A DNA stretch of 47,451 nt from Gemmatimonadales bacterium (GTDB taxonomy: Bacteria; Gemmatimonadota; Gemmatimonadetes; Gemmatimonadales; GWC2-71-9), in NCBI GenBank assembly GCA_036443495.1, contig JAZFYL010000025.1, positions 1 through 47,451 of the forward strand, written 5' to 3'. Under the pieces are notes generated by a model that saw nothing but the letters and a program-made list of their open reading frames with translations, was not told the origin of the DNA and did not search any database. Shown here in pieces: positions 2,581 through 41,026 of this stretch. Position 1 is the stretch's first letter; every line of letters begins with the position of its first letter. Both the position numbers and the translations under genes were made by a program.

Positions 2581-3044
2581 GACGCCGACTCCTCCAACCG
2601 CAGGGAGCCGCGAGCGTCTGCCACCGACATCGTGTAGGGCTCCAGTCGTCGCACGAAATCCTGGGGCAGCGGGCGAGAGGCCAGCAGCTCGCGATCTGTT
2701 GCTACCAGCACCAGATGACCGTCGGCCGTCAACCGCCGCAGGTCCCGGTGGATGACGTCAAAATGCATGGTGATCGACCGGCGACCAACCCGCTCGACGT
2801 ACGCGGCGACCTCCAGGACATCGTCCAGGCGGGCTGGGTAGTGGAAATCGGTATGCACTTGAGCGCGCGGGAGGTACATGTCGTACTCATCGAACATGAT
2901 GCCATACGACAGGCCGACGGTCCGGAACAACTCCGTCTCGGCCAGCTCGAAGAAGCGGACGTAGGATCCGTAGAAGATGATCCCCGCGGCATCGACGTCT
3001 GACCACCGAACGCGCTCTTCTATCAGAAACGGCTGTGCTGTCAT
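2577..3044 (-). CDS. acyl-CoA thioesterase, 4HBT/YbgC family
   Basis: MTAQPFLIEERVRWSDVDAAGIIFYGSYVRFFELAE... is the typical hotdog-fold YbgC N-terminus. I chose the internal ATG at 3044 because the longer ORF (to 3155) adds an Arg/Ser-rich non-homologous extension. Confidence 0.8.
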   Translation of the reverse strand: MTAQPFLIEERVRWSDVDAAGIIFYGSYVRFFELAETELFRTVGLSYGIMFDEYDMYLPRAQVHTDFHYPARLDDVLEVAAYVERVGRRSITMHFDVIHRDLRRLTADGHLVLVATDRELLASRPLPQDFVRRLEPYTMSVADARGSLRLEESAS

Positions 3045-3099
3045 AGAGCGGGAAGGTAGGGTGAGGACCGCTCGCGCGGTAGGTTGTCGACGCCTGCGA

Positions 3100-5268
3100 C
3101 TAGCGGACCGCCCCGAAGACGATGTCGAAGCGGAGACCCTGCCCCGATCCGCCATTCAACGGACCACTGAGGTCGAACCGGACCAATCCGCCGAAGAAGG
3201 ACACACCGGCCCCGGCACCGACCAGCACCGACTCGTCCTGCAACGACCCCACCGGACCTGCTTGCCCGGCATCCAGGAACGCCACCGGTCGAATGTTGCC
3301 GTCGAATGGTGCCCAGTCGGCGCGAAGGGCCCAGAACGCTTGGCCCCGTTCCGTTCCGTAGGTGAGCCCGCGAACGGTCGGCAGACCGCCGACCCGAAAC
3401 AGGGCCTGATCGAGATCGCTCGAGGTAGCAACACCGGCGTCGAATCCCAACGTCAGCCTTGTCTTCTCGGGAAGCGGTTGCCGCCACGACGCATAGACGC
3501 GGCCAACCATCGAAGTCGACCCGACGAACACATCTGTGGCGGCTCGCCAGGAGGCTGGTCCGGAAGTCCCGTCGAAGCGCCAGCCGACCACACCGAACGT
3601 ACCCTCCGTCACCGTGGGATTCGGGGGGAAATTGTTGTCGCTCCACAGCCCGTTGACACCCGAGCCGACTTGCCGAGTGACGCTTTGCTGGTCCTCCACG
3701 CGACCGAAAAGCGTGAGCTGGAGACCCCGACTCAACGAGGTCTCGAATTCTACGGAACCGCCCACGGCCTGGTAGTAGTCCGCGTTGTCGTGACTGGTGA
3801 ACAGGGCATTCACGGAGTTGCCGAGCGTCTTCACCCGGAAGAAACGATCGACTTCGACCACTTCATAGTGGCCGCTAACAGTCAGGCGGCCCCCAGGCGC
3901 ATCCCGAATCAAGGACAGACGTCCGTTCAGCTTGCCATCGGCGATGCCGTAACGCACCGTGCCCATCACGTTGGTGAAGGACACCCCCGGGACCTTCACC
4001 TGGTAGCCCAAACCTACCGAGAGACCCTGGACACGATTGAATCGGAGAATGTCGGCGAAACGCTCGTAGGCAATCCCCCGGCGGCGGATGCCGGTCATGT
4101 CGCTGGACAGACCTTCCGCCAACCGCGCAACTTCGGCCTCGGCCTCCCGAATGCGCTCGTCGTCACCCTCCTCGGGATCGAGGGTCAGCGAATCGGTCCA
4201 GGCGTAACTGTCGAGCGAATCAGCCGGAGGACGATGGACTTGGAACCGCCCACCGGCCCAGTAGCCGGTGTAGTCGACCGTCTTGGTCGAGTCGTTGAAG
4301 TATCGACGCCCCCGTCCATCATTCGTGGACGAAATAACGATGTTGGCCTCACCCTCATCCCGCATTTCCGCTGAATCATCGTCCGGGACGGTGAACACCA
4401 CCGGTGTGCCGGTGTTGATCTCGTAATCCTGGAACGTAGTCTTGGCCTCGAAGGGGATCACGATGTCGCTGATGATGGGGATCTGGATCCGCCCGCTCAC
4501 CACCTGCCGGTAAGGCATCCAGTACCGTCCATCCTGGAGCGAATACTCGATGTCGGCGTCGACGCTCAGGATACGGTTGATGATCTTGTTGGCCGTCCGG
4601 GCACCGGACGAGTCCTCCGGTGATTCCGGAATCTCCCACATGCCGGTGCCGACAAACCGAAAGGTGAAGCGCACCACTTCGGCCGTCTCCGCGTCCAACC
4701 ACATATTGCCCACGATCAGCGATGCGCCCGTGCTCAGCGGCACAACTTCCACCTTCAGCATCCGGAGCTCTCTTCCGGAAGGCAGGAACAGGCGCACGCT
4801 GTCGGTCAGGGCGTAGTGGTACCAAGTGGGGCCATCGCTCGCCAAGGGATGCAGGGCCGCCCGCTCGGGGAACTCATTGCCGAAGAAAGAAACCGAATCC
4901 CCGATGCCACGCGGAAAAAACCACGGGGTCTCCATTACCGCTTTGATGTTCCAGTCTTCCCGACGGGCCTTGGAGCGCGTCCCCAGAACGTCCACGCGGA
5001 GGTCGTTGGGGAGTTGCCAATGGACGACCGCTTCCTGCTCCTCGACCGCGGCGATGGGAATGCGGGCCCACCGGCGACGTCCCAGGGAGAACGACAGTCG
5101 GTATCGGAGAAGTGCGCGGTAATCGGTAACCGCCGAGTCCTGAGCGTGATGGCGCTCGGCGGCGCGCCGGATCAGATCCCGGGTCGCCGCGTCGGCAAAA
5201 CTGGAGTCGGGGAGGTGGCTGGTGCCCTGGAGCGAGAGGGCTAGGACCGCTGCTGCGGCGAGGCCCAT
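3100..5268 (-). CDS. Omp85-superfamily outer-membrane beta-barrel protein with an uncharacterised N-terminal half
   Basis: 722 aa. The C-terminal roughly 300 aa show alternating beta-strand pattern, a VRG(L/Y) loop-6-like motif (TVRGLTYG) and terminal strands GAGAGVSFF...RFDIVFGAV. The N-terminus is signal-like. The gene overlaps the upstream gene by 28 nt. Confidence 0.7.
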   Translation of the reverse strand: MGLAAAAVLALSLQGTSHLPDSSFADAATRDLIRRAAERHHAQDSAVTDYRALLRYRLSFSLGRRRWARIPIAAVEEQEAVVHWQLPNDLRVDVLGTRSKARREDWNIKAVMETPWFFPRGIGDSVSFFGNEFPERAALHPLASDGPTWYHYALTDSVRLFLPSGRELRMLKVEVVPLSTGASLIVGNMWLDAETAEVVRFTFRFVGTGMWEIPESPEDSSGARTANKIINRILSVDADIEYSLQDGRYWMPYRQVVSGRIQIPIISDIVIPFEAKTTFQDYEINTGTPVVFTVPDDDSAEMRDEGEANIVISSTNDGRGRRYFNDSTKTVDYTGYWAGGRFQVHRPPADSLDSYAWTDSLTLDPEEGDDERIREAEAEVARLAEGLSSDMTGIRRRGIAYERFADILRFNRVQGLSVGLGYQVKVPGVSFTNVMGTVRYGIADGKLNGRLSLIRDAPGGRLTVSGHYEVVEVDRFFRVKTLGNSVNALFTSHDNADYYQAVGGSVEFETSLSRGLQLTLFGRVEDQQSVTRQVGSGVNGLWSDNNFPPNPTVTEGTFGVVGWRFDGTSGPASWRAATDVFVGSTSMVGRVYASWRQPLPEKTRLTLGFDAGVATSSDLDQALFRVGGLPTVRGLTYGTERGQAFWALRADWAPFDGNIRPVAFLDAGQAGPVGSLQDESVLVGAGAGVSFFGGLVRFDLSGPLNGGSGQGLRFDIVFGAVR

Positions 5269-14829: not shown

Positions 14830-15060
14830 TCAACCGAGCTCGGCCCGCACCAAGTCCAGGACTTCGCCAGGGTTGGCGTGACGTCCAACCGACTTCTTGG
14901 AGAAGACAAGCTTCCCGTCGACCTCGACCTCGAACGCTCCGCCGGATGATTCCAGGAGCTGGACGTCGCATTTGGAAAAGGCCTGTTTCAACTCCGCCGC
15001 CAAACTGGCGGCGCGCGGTTGGTAGTTTCAAACGACGCAGTATTCGATGCTGATCTTCAT
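14830..15060 (-). CDS. SelW/Rdx-family thioredoxin-like selenoprotein with in-frame UGA (Sec) at codon 11
   Basis: ATG at 15058..15060 reads MKISIEYCVV-TGA(15028..15030)-NYQPRAASLAAELKQAFSKCDVQLLESSGGAFEVEVDGKLVFSKKSVGRHANPGEVLDLVRAELG, with stop at 14830..14832. It has a CxxU redox motif and GGAFEV, typical of the Rdx/SelW family. A hairpin lies 6 nt after the UGA. Confidence 0.8.
14989..15021 (-). promoter_or_regulatory. candidate bacterial SECIS hairpin
   Basis: mRNA sense CAAC-CGCG-CGCCGCC-AGUUU-GGCGGCG-GA-GUUG. It has a 7-bp perfect upper stem, a 5-nt GU-containing loop, an internal loop and a 4-bp lower stem, and starts 6 nt after the UGA. Confidence 0.65.
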
Positions 15061-23555: not shown

Positions 23556-24104
23556 TCAAGAAGTCTGGTCTCGCGACTCCTCTTCCAGTTCGATGCCAAG
23601 CCCGTCAGCGATCCGGTTCACGAATGCGAAGTAGGCGGTCACGGTAGCGAGGTCATGAATGGCCACATCGTCAAACCCGTTCTGCCGCAACCGATCAACG
23701 TCATGGGCCGTCATGGCGCCGGGATCCTCGGTGAGCTTGAGGGCGTAGTCGAGTAACGCTCGGTCGGCCGGCGGCAGGGACATTTTCCGATAGTCGTCAA
23801 CCAACCCTCGTACGAAACCCGCCGCATCGAGGTCTTCTTCTTCCCGCTCCAGAATGCCACGGAGGCCCGCTCCGTGATGCGCCGTTCAGTAGCGGCATCC
23901 GTTGACGGCCGACACCACCACCGCCACCATCTCCCGCTGCCTCCGCGACAGTGGACTTGGTCGCCGCATGACCTCTATGTAGAGGTCGTAGTGCCGTCGC
24001 ATGACACGGGGATGCACCCCGTGAATCCGGATGATGTTGTCACGATCCTTCACCCGGTCTCGCTCGGGAATGTCCAATTCTGGAACGTACGGGATATAGG
24101 CCAT
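23556..24104 (-). CDS. AhpD/carboxymuconolactone-decarboxylase-family peroxidase-related enzyme, selenoprotein with in-frame UGA at codon 73
   Basis: ORFs 23886..24104 and 23556..23804 are in the same frame, and TGA 23886..23888 is the only stop between them. The joined protein reads ...VVSAVNGCRY-U-TAHHGAGLRGIL...LLDYALKLTEDPGAMTAHDVDRLRQNGFDDVAIHDLATVTAYFAFVNRIADGLG. This is the family motif N-x-C-x-Y-C-x-x-H-H with the second Cys replaced by UGA. Confidence 0.8.
23858..23876 (-). promoter_or_regulatory. candidate bacterial SECIS hairpin
   Basis: mRNA sense CACGGAG-CGGGC-CUCCGUG, a 7-bp perfect stem with a G-rich 5-nt loop, beginning 9 nt after the UGA. Confidence 0.6.
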
Positions 24105-24215
24105 GCTGTGCTCCCGGTAGTGTCCTGCCCACGGGCCAATGTTGGTACCTTCAACTTGTTGAAATAGTGCGAGTTACACAACTGGCCTAGTCCCAGGGCA
24201 ACTGTGTCACTATAA

Positions 24216-25361
24216 TTGCGCCCGTCCGCACCCATATCTTCACGGAGGCCGTCACTGGAACTCCCGAACCAGCACCACGTACCTCTGACCTGGCTCCTGG
24301 AACATGGTGGGCCGACCATCCGGCATCGGACCATCCGTGAATTGGCCCCCGAGGGGTCCGTTTCTCCCAAAACGGCCCAAGAGGCCGCGGATGGGGTCAC
24401 GGCCTACAAGGCGGCCAGCAGCATCGCCAAGAAACAGCGACCGGCGGGGGTGTGGGCGAGCAACATGATGGGGCTTGCCCCGTCGGCGGCTCTGGGGATT
24501 CGAGACGTCGGCACGATAGCCCAGTACCGGCGATTGCTGCAACTCGGCTGGCCTGCCGGAGATCGGACGTTCAAGTTGACCACCCGAGTCCTGTTCCGGC
24601 TCTTGTCGCGCGACCCGGATCCAGCGCTCCTGTTCGAGTTCCGCAAGGCGGTCAAAGCGGCTCCCCAGTCAGAGGGGTGGGCTCGCGACACGCTTCGAGA
24701 GTCGGCCTCAGCCGCTCTCGCAGAAGCAGGCTTCAACGCAGACCCCCGGCTCCGAGGTTCGGCCCACAGGATCATCTCGGCGGTCTCACAGTTCCTCCGC
24801 AGCCCACAGGCTTTGAAGCCTCTGGCAACAGTCGGCCGGCAGCGGGTGTTGGACGGAAACGCCTACCCCCCAACCTGGTACTCCGTGGCCATGATGGCCT
24901 CGATGCCGCGACTGCAGCGAGAGAGGGCCGGTTTCACCGAACGTCTGGGGCAGTACCTGGCTCATGCACCGCCCAAGCACACGTTCGCCCTAAAACTCGG
25001 CAAGAAATCGCTCAAGCCGGCCCACATCCTGCTTGGCAACCCGATTCAAGCCGACGGCAGGGGCGTGGCAAAAGACATCCCCCTGGCACTGTACTACATC
25101 GAACTCATGAGCAGGATCGGGATCCTCAATACCGCCCCGGTTGCCACGCGGGTCTTGGCAAGACTGCTCAAGGACTGTGACGGTACAGGCATCTGGCACC
25201 CCAAGAATTTGCGATCCCAGCCCAAGGCGAAGGATCCGGCATCGTACCACTACTATCCGCTATTGGCGGTGAGCAAGGTGGCCGAATCGCGGCAAGCGGA
25301 CATCACGTTCCGGCTGGCCTTGATCGCCAAACTCCTGGACTGGCAGCTCGCGTTCGACTAG
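24216..25361 (+). CDS. hypothetical protein, helical, no family recognised
   Basis: 381-aa ORF with coding-like composition. The TTG at 24216 overlaps a TATAAT hexamer (24211..24216). GGAGG at 24244..24248 precedes an in-frame CTG at 24255, so the real start is uncertain. Confidence 0.55.
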   Translation: MRPSAPISSRRPSLELPNQHHVPLTWLLEHGGPTIRHRTIRELAPEGSVSPKTAQEAADGVTAYKAASSIAKKQRPAGVWASNMMGLAPSAALGIRDVGTIAQYRRLLQLGWPAGDRTFKLTTRVLFRLLSRDPDPALLFEFRKAVKAAPQSEGWARDTLRESASAALAEAGFNADPRLRGSAHRIISAVSQFLRSPQALKPLATVGRQRVLDGNAYPPTWYSVAMMASMPRLQRERAGFTERLGQYLAHAPPKHTFALKLGKKSLKPAHILLGNPIQADGRGVAKDIPLALYYIELMSRIGILNTAPVATRVLARLLKDCDGTGIWHPKNLRSQPKAKDPASYHYYPLLAVSKVAESRQADITFRLALIAKLLDWQLAFD

Positions 25362-25418: not shown

Positions 25419-26108
25419 ATGCCCAAGGTGGATCTCACTCCATTCGGTTTCACGCCGACCGAAAGCCTCGTGTACCATGTGCTGTTGGCGCACGGCCCCG
25501 GGACGGGCTACGCCATCGCTCGCGCCGCTCGCCTAGCCAGGGCCAACGCCTACGGCGCCCTGGAGGGCCTCAGGTCGAAAGGCGCCGCCAACGCCGATGA
25601 GGGACGGCCAAGGCGATACCGTCCCGAGCCTCCTCCCGTTCTTCTCGCCCGGATCGCTAGTCGCCAGAACAAAGCAATCGATAGCCTCGCGGCGGCGCTC
25701 GAAGATCTTTCCGCCCCGCATTCGCCCAGTTTGGTGGAGATCGATTCGGTCCGGGCGGCGCTGCGACTGATCAGCCACGACATAGCCAGGGCGGAGCATT
25801 CTGTTGAGCTGGTTGCCCCATCCGATGCATTTCCTCTGTTGACGCCAGTCTTGCGTCGGGCGGCCAGTGCGGAGTTGGCGATGCATTTGAGATCCGTAGG
25901 ACGTGTTGAAGGCTCGCCGTTCACCGCGCTCGAACCGATTGCAGGCGGTTATCGGTGGCCGGGCATGCCGCTCATATCCGTGGTGGATGATCGAACGGCC
26001 GTCATCGCTGCCCGCCAGGGTAACGATGTGCGAGGTCACTGGTGCCAAGCGCTGGCTTTTGTAGCCGCCGCACGACTCAGCATCGAACGTTTAGGAACAC
26101 AATCATGA
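25419..26108 (+). CDS. TrmB-family transcriptional regulator
   Basis: N-terminal winged HTH LTPFGFTPTESLVYHVLLAHGPGTGYAIARAARLARANAYGALEGLRSKG matches TrmB_N. Its stop overlaps the next ATG (ATGA). Confidence 0.75.
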   Translation: MPKVDLTPFGFTPTESLVYHVLLAHGPGTGYAIARAARLARANAYGALEGLRSKGAANADEGRPRRYRPEPPPVLLARIASRQNKAIDSLAAALEDLSAPHSPSLVEIDSVRAALRLISHDIARAEHSVELVAPSDAFPLLTPVLRRAASAELAMHLRSVGRVEGSPFTALEPIAGGYRWPGMPLISVVDDRTAVIAARQGNDVRGHWCQALAFVAAARLSIERLGTQS

Positions 26109-27772
26109 GCGATGTAGCGAACGACGAACTCAGCGTGGCGTTTCTGAGACTGCAGCGGGAATACATTGCCGAGTTTCCGGCGCGGCTCGCGGAACTGCGG
26201 AAGGATATCGCGGCCCTGGGTGCGGGCGAGCCGGACGCCGCCGTATCCATCAAGAGACGGCTTCACAAGCTGGCTGGTTCAGGAGGGTCGTACGGATTTC
26301 CGGAGCTGAGCCGTGAGGCACGCGATGCGGAGCAGTGGCTAGGCCAACCCGACGCGGGCCCCGATACTGTGGAACGTTTGGATCAGACCGTCGCCAAGCT
26401 GGCCGAGTTGATGGACGAGGCTCCCACGCCAGAGATGCCGGAGGATCAAGGCCGGCCGCTGGATTTTGGATGGCAAGCGCACATCATTGGCCGTGAGCAC
26501 GGGTTGATGGCCGCCTTGACGGAGACCCTGACGGCGGCGGGATTCAAGGTAACATCCGGTTCGGAATCGAACCAAGCCAACACCATCCCCATCTCGGCCC
26601 GACCCGACCTCTTGGTCATCGTCGGCAAGGCCAAGGACTTCGATACTCATGCAACGGCTGCAGCCTGGACCAGCGTACGATCCATCCGTCCTCGGGGCGT
26701 GGTGCTCATCGACACCGGGGACAGTTCTGACCGGTTTGGAGCGGTCGCGGCAGGGGTCGATGCGATCTTCCAACCGGGCCAGATCAACACGGACTTCCCC
26801 CAGTACGCCAAGACCTTGGCCCGCATCGGCGTTCCCCCTTCGAGCGTACTGTTGGTGGAGGACGACCTCGCGCAAGCGCAGTTGGTCGCGTCGGCCCTGG
26901 AGGCATCCAACATCAGGGTCAATCATGCGGAAGATGCGGCACGAGCCCAGGAACTCCTGGCACAAGAGGTTCCCGACCTCATCCTGCTCGACATCGGGCT
27001 ACCCGACATGGACGGGATCACGCTGGCCCGCCTGATCAGGCAGGACCCGCGGTACAGCCTGCTACCGATCGTCTTCCTGACAGCGCGGGCGTCGATGGCG
27101 AGTCATGTCGAAGCGCTGCGGGCCGGCGGGGACGACTTCCTCACCAAACCGATAGACCAGAGCCTCAACCTGTTGCTGCAGGTAGTCATCACCCGGGCCG
27201 AGCGCGGACGTCGCATCCGCGAGATGGTCCACAAGGATGGCCTCACGGGGCTGCTCAACCACGCGACTTTGATGACGGAGTTGGAGAACGCAGTGGAGTA
27301 CGCCAATCGCGGTATCGAATCGTTCACCTTCTTGATGATCGACATCGACCATTTCAAGCGCGTGAACGATCGATACGGACACCTGGTGGGGGATCAGGTC
27401 TTGCTCCACGTCGCCCGGATCTTCCAGAGCACGGCGAGGTCGAGCGATGTGATCGGGCGGTATGGCGGCGAGGAATTCGGGATAATCCTGCGACGCAGCA
27501 ATCAGATCGGGGCTGCCACCGTAGCCGAGAAGCTCCGAACCGCCCTGCGAGAACGGCCGGCCACCACGGAAGACGGCGAACCGATCCCCGTGCAGGTCAG
27601 CATTGGAATCGCCAGCTATCCGGAGGACGGCGCTTCCGCGTCGGTCTTGGCGCATGCTGCGGATCTTGCATTGTATCGGGCGAAGTCTCGTGGGCGGGAT
27701 CGGGTGGAATTGGCCGACCCCGAGGGAGTCGCTGCTACGACTCCCGAGGAGACGCCCGGCGGCGAGGCCTGA
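26105..27772 (+). CDS. HPt - degenerate receiver - REC - GGDEF diguanylate cyclase response regulator
   Basis: HPt (RRLHKLAGSGGSYGF). REC (VLLVEDD...DLILLDIGLPDMDG...LTKP). GGDEF with a GGEEF active site and an RSSD I-site five residues upstream. Confidence 0.88.
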   Translation: MSDVANDELSVAFLRLQREYIAEFPARLAELRKDIAALGAGEPDAAVSIKRRLHKLAGSGGSYGFPELSREARDAEQWLGQPDAGPDTVERLDQTVAKLAELMDEAPTPEMPEDQGRPLDFGWQAHIIGREHGLMAALTETLTAAGFKVTSGSESNQANTIPISARPDLLVIVGKAKDFDTHATAAAWTSVRSIRPRGVVLIDTGDSSDRFGAVAAGVDAIFQPGQINTDFPQYAKTLARIGVPPSSVLLVEDDLAQAQLVASALEASNIRVNHAEDAARAQELLAQEVPDLILLDIGLPDMDGITLARLIRQDPRYSLLPIVFLTARASMASHVEALRAGGDDFLTKPIDQSLNLLLQVVITRAERGRRIREMVHKDGLTGLLNHATLMTELENAVEYANRGIESFTFLMIDIDHFKRVNDRYGHLVGDQVLLHVARIFQSTARSSDVIGRYGGEEFGIILRRSNQIGAATVAEKLRTALRERPATTEDGEPIPVQVSIGIASYPEDGASASVLAHAADLALYRAKSRGRDRVELADPEGVAATTPEETPGGEA

Positions 27773-40339: not shown

Positions 40340-40551
40340 GCTAATGGGCACAAGAGAGGGGGCCAGAGCCCCCCAGTAAGAACAACGGACATACGATCCG
40401 CCCGATAAGAGCACACCCGGAGCGATCCGGGGCCGCAAAACCAGAGGTCTCGACCAATCGAGATAGCTCGGTGCCGAAGGTGGAACCAGCAATGCGGAGC
40501 GTAATGCCTGAGCCAGTGCCCCTGAGGGGCCTGTGCGCATTACGCTTTTTT
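40340..40551 (+). ncRNA. candidate structured RNA: sRNA or cis-regulatory leader of unknown class
   Basis: Non-coding 438-bp gap. Perfect hairpins at 40358..40373 (GGGGGC-CAGA-GCCCCC), 40416..40431 (CCCGGA-GCGA-TCCGGG, GNRA loop) and 40448..40463 (TCTCGA-CCAA-TCGAGA), ending in a strong terminator. Confidence 0.4.
40499..40551 (+). terminator. intrinsic terminator
   Basis: Outer stem GCGTAATGC/GCATTACGC encloses an inner stem GCCCC-TGA-GGGGC and is followed by TTTTTT. It ends 26 nt before the next ATG. Confidence 0.75.
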
Positions 40552-40576
40552 GTGTTTATCGGGCGTGGGAGAGAGC

Positions 40577-41026
40577 ATGACTTCCACGCAAGCGCAGTTC
40601 TCCAAGACCTTCGGGTCACGTCTAGCCGGCATCGCCCTGATGGCACTGGGTTGTGCGCCGGCGGCCTTGAGTCCCAGTTCCCTACCTGACGGTGCCGTTT
40701 CGTTCACGGCACCCTCGGAGTACCGGGTGTGGTGGGCCAGCACCGAGTCGTGCTCCGGTCGGACCGGTGACTTCGACCGGATTGCCTGGTACGCCGTCCC
40801 GGGGGCCAGCACCATGGAGACGGAGATCGGCGAGAAAGTTGGAATCTGGGCCAGCCATGACGGCCAGAGCACCATCACAATCGCCGGCGAGTACCTCGAC
40901 AACGAATTGGTCATCCGGCACGAGATGTTGCACGAGCTGCTGGGTCGTGACGGTCACCCCGACGAGTACTTCGTAGCTCGGTGCGGACTGACCTGGGAGA
41001 GTTGGCAGCTGGCCAGTAGCGAGTAG
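40577..41026 (+). CDS. small lipoprotein with HExxH zinc-metallopeptidase-like motif
   Basis: GGGAGAGAG precedes the ATG. Lipobox LMALGC. Contains IRHEMLHELLG. About 149 aa. Confidence 0.65.
   Translation: MTSTQAQFSKTFGSRLAGIALMALGCAPAALSPSSLPDGAVSFTAPSEYRVWWASTESCSGRTGDFDRIAWYAVPGASTMETEIGEKVGIWASHDGQSTITIAGEYLDNELVIRHEMLHELLGRDGHPDEYFVARCGLTWESWQLASSE

Follow-up and report, generated by a model that had tools for sequence, protein, structure and literature searches.

A predicted selenocysteine codon in an AhpD-like, peroxidase-related gene of a Gemmatimonadales bacterium

A gene on the minus strand of a Gemmatimonadales contig (JAZFYL010000025.1, assembly GCA_036443495.1) carries an in-frame UGA at codon 73, and we consider it highly probable that it is a single, functional gene encoding an AhpD-like thiol/selenol oxidoreductase (TIGR01926) of 182 residues, in which this codon (UGA73) is decoded as selenocysteine (Sec). 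The stretch analysed, hereafter the window, comprises 47,451 nucleotides, and all coordinates refer to it unless a homologous locus is named (Table 1). An earlier note on this DNA had proposed the gene as a second selenoprotein; the first is presumably a SelW-like/Rdx gene, also present in the window and described below. Translation of the minus-strand frame from 24104 to 23556 gave one internal stop only, the TGA at 23888..23886. This agrees with the earlier reading that two ORFs (23886..24104, 72 aa, ending SAVNGCRY, and 23556..23804, 82 aa) share one frame and that the 81-nt gap between them holds no further stop. The peptide around the codon reads VNGCRY-TGA-TAHHGAGLRG, and the frame 3' of the TGA is open for 109 codons. 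The N-terminus (MAYIPYVPE) agrees with the starts of the homologues (MAFI...). A scan for promoter and terminator consensus sequences around the gene found none.

Table 1. Features of the two UGA-containing genes, with positions in the window.
Feature	Position	Strand	Remarks
AhpD-like / peroxidase-related selenoprotein gene (TIGR01926, CMD PF02627), predicted, complete	23556..24104	-	182 codons + TGA terminator
ATG start of the AhpD-like gene	24102..24104	-	homologues begin at the same position
Shine-Dalgarno-like GGGAG, 6 nt 5' of the ATG	24111..24115	-	sequence read; function putative
Glu58 codon, equivalent to AhpD Glu118 / PA0269 Glu36, predicted proton relay	23931..23933	-	invariant, 81/81
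Cys70 codon TGC, first residue of CxxU, equivalent to AhpD Cys130 / PA0269 Cys48	23895..23897	-	invariant, 81/81
Tyr72, at AhpD position 132 (His132), PA0269 Tyr50		-	invariant, 81/81
In-frame UGA, predicted Sec73 (codon 73), equivalent to AhpD Cys133 / PA0269 Cys51	23886..23888	-	TGA in 82/83 homologous loci, TGC in 1
Spacer between UGA and hairpin (9 nt)	23885..23877	-	
His77 codon CAC, equivalent to AhpD His137 / PA0269 His55	23874..23876	-	invariant, 81/81; also first 3 bases of the hairpin 5' arm
Putative bacterial SECIS-type hairpin in the coding sequence, encodes H-G-A-G-L-R	23858..23876	-	synonymous constraint, covariation, RNAalifold, centroid fold
Hairpin 5' arm CACGGAG	23876..23870	-	
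Hairpin loop CGGGC	23869..23865	-	
Hairpin 3' arm CTCCGTG	23864..23858	-	
TGA terminator of the AhpD-like gene	23558..23556	-	sequence read
SelW-like/Rdx gene, 76 residues	15060..14830	-	PF10262, 81.6 bits, full length
In-frame TGA of the SelW-like/Rdx gene, C-V-V-U motif	15028..15030	-	

The joined product, with U replaced by C, was scanned against the Pfam and NCBIfam profiles. TIGR01926 ("peroxidase-related enzyme") matched with 121.9 bits, above its curated cutoff of 81.8, and residues 22–172 aligned with profile positions 30–174 of 178 across the TGA, so the end-to-end family match that had been claimed holds. The Pfam CMD profile (PF02627) was likewise passed (53.3 bits, cutoff 23), and TIGR00778 gave 40.5 bits. 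The model for true AhpD, TIGR00777, was failed (19.4 bits, cutoff 191.95); because this score is far under the cutoff, the gene is, on profile evidence, not an AhpD orthologue. No AhpC/Prx gene was found adjacent to it in the window. The score against NF041238 (AhpD_rel_CFYUT (seleno)protein) was also below the cutoff (70.7 vs 175 bits). That family is a CMD-domain CxxU selenoprotein as well, and the C-terminal half of its 357-position model aligns with the protein described here; however, it is about twice as long (∼357 aa), and the present gene is not a member.

Residues of the active site were mapped through the TIGR00777 alignment, in which residues 56–84 fall on profile positions 116–144 with no indels. 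Sec73 aligns with Cys133 of AhpD and with Cys51 of PA0269, which bears out the claim that the UGA replaces the second Cys of the CxxC motif. A proton-relay set of Glu118, Cys130, His132, Cys133 and His137 has been described for Mycobacterium tuberculosis AhpD, with a Tyr variant in Pseudomonas aeruginosa PA0269 (PMC3141380). The gene shares with both proteins the all-helical CMD/AhpD family and the spacing Glu-x11-Cys-x-(His/Tyr)-Cys-x3-His, whereas the second redox position is Cys in those two proteins and predicted Sec here. A Glu precedes the first Cys of the C-x-x-C/U motif by 12 residues and a His follows the motif at +4. None of the 81 distinct homologues with TGA departs from E58, C70, Y72, H76 or H77. 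The closest solved structures by sequence were 3C1L (Mlr4105), 2PRR, 2PFX, 2OYO and the AhpD structure 6K40 (E = 9e-23 to 6e-16 over residues 22–175), and the matches to these five homologues settle the fold. All five share the motif N-x-C-x-Y-C-x-x-H-G-A and have Cys at the Sec column. The first four are structural-genomics entries labelled "uncharacterized peroxidase-related proteins", and only 6K40 was deposited with a function (AhpD).

Conservation of the TGA was assessed with one genome per GTDB species, which yielded 80 loci from Gemmatimonadota, Acidobacteriota, Chloroflexota, Planctomycetota, Synergistota, Marinimicrobia/Fidelibacterota, Calditrichota, Eisenbacteria and others; the window and two added loci (L001 and L002) brought the set to 83. 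The Sec column is TGA in 82 of the 83, across at least 8 phyla, and TGC in the remaining one (L070). The earlier note had asked whether homologues carry Cys or TGA at this column: they carry TGA, in intact frames and with purifying selection downstream. Estimates of dN/dS against six relatives were 0.10–0.23 for the 75 codons 3' of the TGA, comparable to the 0.06–0.23 obtained 5' of it. L001, a 22-kb Gemmatimonadota contig (also recovered as L004), is syntenic with the window, has TGA at the same codon and shows the same split of the gene into a 72-aa ORF and a fragment. The gene order common to the two is M28 peptidase, split AhpD-like gene, 360-aa protein, TrmB, Hpt-REC-GGDEF and Lon. The protein next to the AhpD-like gene (24216..25361, plus strand, in the window; 4481..5563 in L001) is conserved, has ∼360–380 aa and no Pfam hit, and is encoded divergently from the AhpD-like gene, followed by the TrmB-family regulator, an arrangement kept in both.

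These data bear directly on the possibility that the locus is a pseudogene, in which a nonsense mutation would have turned the TGC or TGT codon of a CxxC AhpD-like gene into TGA and the downstream part would be decaying. Such a history would fit the splitting or truncation of the gene by gene callers, as well as the failure to find Sec machinery in the window. It would also demand that one and the same codon had mutated to a stop independently in ∼80 species, which is not credible given a TGA at the identical codon in nearly every locus of at least 8 phyla. Furthermore, the 109 open codons downstream evolve with dN/dS of 0.10–0.23, frame disruptions are absent in close relatives, and the TIGR01926 match extends to residue 172. 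The pseudogene reading was rejected on the conserved TGA and the purifying selection downstream; it is effectively refuted and retains only a very slight probability. The preference for Sec recoding over a pseudogene expressed in the earlier note therefore stands, on TGA in 82 of 83 loci, dN/dS of ∼0.1–0.2 and invariant catalytic residues. A separate observation concerns a Marinimicrobia locus (L041, ∼3001–3540), which contains a second in-frame stop (…DVE*LRV…) besides the Sec TGA; this stop may reflect a sequencing error, or the locus may be a true pseudogene.

Other residues at the Sec column were informative. Cys is found in L070, in the database entries P0005/7/9/13 and in all of the PDB homologues, with the ORF conserved on both sides, so that the column forms a Sec/Cys pair. 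L070, a Planctomycetota MAG (JBDRKQ01, ∼position 3246) and the only TGC form among the 83 loci, has kept a hairpin of the type ACGGAGCG-UCG-CGCUCCGU (-10.5 kcal/mol), which fits a recent Sec-to-Cys conversion leaving a remnant SECIS; such remnants have been documented where Cys forms arose from Sec forms (PMC1794560). Two further loci have CGA (Arg; L089, 501–1073) and TTA (Leu; L090, 238–786) at the column, each one base from TGA and each with an intact hairpin; they result either from mistakes in assembly or sequencing or from a recent loss of Sec that was probably inactivating. Since L070, L089 and L090 all keep it, the hairpin is not strictly diagnostic of a UGA. Among Cys forms, a closer one (L083) encodes HHGANLR and has a degraded hairpin, and a distant one from Rhodanobacter (L084) encodes HHLEALQ and has no hairpin. 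Across the database matches, HHGAGLR accompanies TGA and HH-x-EAL accompanies a true Cys, a pairing which suggests that the SECIS may constrain the encoded peptide.

The earlier note described a 7-bp stem with a G-rich loop, 9 nt 3' of the UGA. The hairpin is present in the window as described, but only its inner 6 bp are conserved among homologues, the outer C-G pair occurring in 13 of 81. When the 60 nt after the UGA were folded alone, the centroid structure was the hairpin, yet the fold was not more stable than shuffled sequences (z = +1.15); the hairpin is thus supported by comparison and not by thermodynamics. Its stem overlaps the codons of the conserved peptide HGAGLR, so that the protein accounts for some of its conservation. 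Codon choice was compared, over the 81 distinct TGA genes, with a background drawn from the rest of the same genes. Within the stem, Gly is GGA or GGG in 66 of 69 cases (background 46%), Ala is GCG in 69 of 70 (33%), Leu is CUC or CUU in 78 of 81 (40%), and Arg is CGU in 65 of 75 (11.5%). The Gly codon of the loop is free (GGU 34, GGG 24, GGA 17, GGC 3). Codons flanking the hairpin are synonymously diverse, and low divergence thus cannot account for the constraint.

Covariation pointed the same way. On a 72-column alignment (A1), 81.8% of the cells of the 7-pair structure were paired, as compared with 25–48% for slid registers, and the 10 double-sided compensatory cells were reached by none of 500 shuffles. 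The inner six pairs form in ∼84–95% of the sequences, and RNAalifold run on the homologues recovered the inner four. A G-C to A-U change (GAR together with CUU) occurs in seven loci of different phyla, and one locus (L054) has the stem AUCGGG/CUCGAU. Three Planctomycetota/Pirellulaceae loci (L047, L050 and L062; A1 columns 22–42) have differing stems and amino acids and a GGUCU loop, e.g. CAGCCGC-GGUCU-GCGGCUG. Taken on these sequence comparisons, the hairpin is under selection at the RNA level.

Published features of bacterial SECIS elements are a stem-loop that follows the UGA directly, lies inside the ORF and has a small apical loop containing G (PMC1088965). The element found here has a stem of 6–7 bp placed 9–10 nt after the UGA and a 5-nt loop, CGGGC. 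An Rfam scan of the window at gathering thresholds found no family at the hairpin. In the minimal Escherichia coli fdhF element the spacing between UGA and hairpin is ∼11 nt and the apical loop is GGUC. The fdhF SECIS is thus alike in being an intra-ORF hairpin soon after the UGA with a G in a small apical loop; the 9–10 nt spacing is close, and the GGUC loop resembles the GGUCU loop of the Planctomycetota homologues. The predicted hairpin differs from it in its short stem of 6–7 bp, in having no evident bulged U and in its CGGGN loop, as well as in the lack of an Rfam match. The only Rfam match in the window lies elsewhere, a c-di-GMP-I riboswitch (RF01051) at 40400..40478 on the plus strand (54.1 bits, gathering threshold 35), just 5' of an ORF for 158 aa without a Pfam hit (40550..41026, plus strand); the window also contains a gene for a Hpt-REC-GGDEF diguanylate cyclase (26042..27772).

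The SelW-like/Rdx gene has its own hairpin, an 8-bp stem (CGCCGCCA-GUU-UGGCGGCG) 16 nt 3' of its in-frame TGA, and its true terminator is also TGA. Searches for the Sec machinery itself were negative in the sequences available. ARAGORN found no tRNA-Sec in the window (which contains no tRNA at all) or in 60 homologous loci, and Pfam found no SelA, SelB or SelD domain in the ∼40 window ORFs that were scanned. Searches with E. coli SelA and SelB (tblastn) against the window and all loci returned GTPase-domain matches only; these were rejected as SelB, those in L042 and L045 being EF-G-like and that in L020 TypA/BipA-like. Extension through identical proteins added 7.7 kb beyond the right edge of the window, which contained no sel genes, and a 2-kb contig at the other edge; the flanks of the 80 homologous loci contained no sel genes either. 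A literature search for the Sec trait in Gemmatimonadota/Gemmatimonadetes returned nothing specific. Nevertheless, because the 47 kb hold two CxxU genes, independent of each other and both with a hairpin, Sec decoding in the source organism is very likely, and we infer its machinery on that ground.

Low-level suppression of UGA73 by a near-cognate Trp- or Cys-tRNA, independent of any SECIS, was also considered; the hairpin would then only slow the ribosome or reflect the peptide. Several of the observations above are compatible with this, namely that the Sec machinery was not found in the sequences searched, that the hairpin overlaps a conserved peptide and persists in some non-UGA variants, and that the single-sequence fold is not significant. 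They are outweighed by the synonymous choices, which are those needed for pairing (the rare CGU, the exclusive GCG) with wobble left free in the loop, and by compensatory doubles that keep the stem despite amino acid changes (GAR/CUU in seven loci, L054 and Planctomycetota). In addition, a small G-rich apical loop just after the UGA fits the published bacterial features, the SelW-like/Rdx gene adds another CxxU motif and hairpin to the window, and the column is a Sec/Cys pair of a recognised selenoprotein family. Near-cognate read-through is accordingly improbable, and SECIS-directed insertion of Sec is the reading adopted here.

Database records of the homologues raised a different possibility, that every UGA in these genomes is a sense codon for Trp (code 4) or Gly (code 25), giving W or G at position 73. 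The matches include many C-terminal fragments of 102–120 aa that start right after the Sec column (MHHGAG..., VVHHGAG...), as well as "full-length" entries with W at this column and one with G. Calls of W, G or a split gene were seen in P0001–P0004, P0006, P0008, P0015–P0020, P0029 and others. The underlying DNA is TGA (e.g. for the W of P0001), so the W and G readings are artefacts of gene callers, and the W, G and split calls together amount to a systematic error in the annotation of short metagenomic contigs. The GC content of the window (63%) speaks against a reassigned code as well. Moreover, its 24 Pfam-supported genes stop at TGA (14), TAG (8) or TAA (2), with TGA where homology predicts, and TGA is likewise the terminator in 45 of 81 homologues. 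Finally, W or G at the Cys133 equivalent would destroy the redox centre, yet the other catalytic residues are invariant. We assign code reassignment a negligible probability. TGA being both the commonest genuine stop in the window and the terminator of the AhpD-like gene itself, the reading of UGA in two ways within one mRNA is a context-dependent (local) recoding and not a changed code.

For Sec insertion at UGA73, SelB binding and the enzymatic role, we infer the following course from the established bacterial Sec pathway. With the ribosome at UGA73, the hairpin 9–10 nt downstream (core ACGGAG-CGGGC-CUCCGU) would be bound by SelB-GTP-Sec-tRNA(Sec), and Sec delivery would compete with release factor 2. 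Translation would then run on to the true TGA terminator, which is without such a hairpin. In the protein, Sec73 would occupy the place that the second Cys has in the CxxC centre of AhpD, among a relay of Glu58, Cys70, Tyr72, Sec73 and His77. Together with Cys70 it probably alternates between a selenol/thiol pair and a selenenylsulfide, and this cycling would reduce a peroxiredoxin partner, or hydroperoxides directly.

AhpD-like proteins had been called a recognised prokaryotic selenoprotein family, and the literature confirms it, from a first description in 2005 to current reviews and BSepDB. Zhang, Fomenko & Gladyshev introduced the "AhpD-like protein" (COG2128, CxxU) in 2005 as a new selenoprotein family of the Sargasso Sea metagenome, giving 27 sequences and illustrating the SECIS (PMC1088965). 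In the GOS data, "AhpD-like 1" ranked fourth in abundance among prokaryotic selenoprotein families, with 299 Sec members as compared with 902 Cys homologues (PMC2398784), and the selenoprotein occurs in cultured genomes, e.g. Alkaliphilus metalliredigenes (PMC1794560). A 2022 review places it under COG2128/YciW (PMC9312934), a 2026 review has "AhpD-like protein, TIGR01926, CxxU" (PMC13188914), and it is the worked example of BSepDB (PMC13326102). The gene described here shares with this family (COG2128/TIGR01926) the profile model, the CxxU motif with predicted Sec at the second redox position, an intra-ORF hairpin with a G-containing loop and a length of ∼180 aa. Nothing substantive differs, except that this copy lies on a metagenome contig of an uncultured organism whose phylum, Gemmatimonadota, is not discussed in the selenoproteome literature searched. 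Judged from the sequence data, the gene agrees with the AhpD-like CxxU family on every point of membership that could be tested, and beyond what is established for that family it brings nothing biologically new.

Three aspects are mildly new: the near-universality of Sec in the subclade, the unusually clean dual RNA and protein constraint on HGAGLR, and the systematic mis-annotation of the gene in MAGs. We favour, with moderate confidence, the view that Sec is near-universal and probably ancestral in this TIGR01926 subclade, and not sporadic; that a near-invariant SECIS (ACGGRG-CGGGN-CUCCGU) in the codons of the active-site helix may fix H-G-A-G-L-R; and that the Cys, Arg and Leu variants keep a remnant hairpin. 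Standard gene callers give either a stub of 72 aa and a fragment truncated at its 5' end, or a Trp- or Gly-containing protein under the wrong code, and because of such miscalls the antioxidant function and the selenium dependence are overlooked. Together, the AhpD-like and SelW-like genes would mark the source organism as a selenocysteine user. If this view of the subclade is right, thousands of MAG annotations would split or truncate the AhpD-like gene, and the clade would offer a clean natural system for studying Sec loss and the constraint that a recoding signal places on protein sequence.
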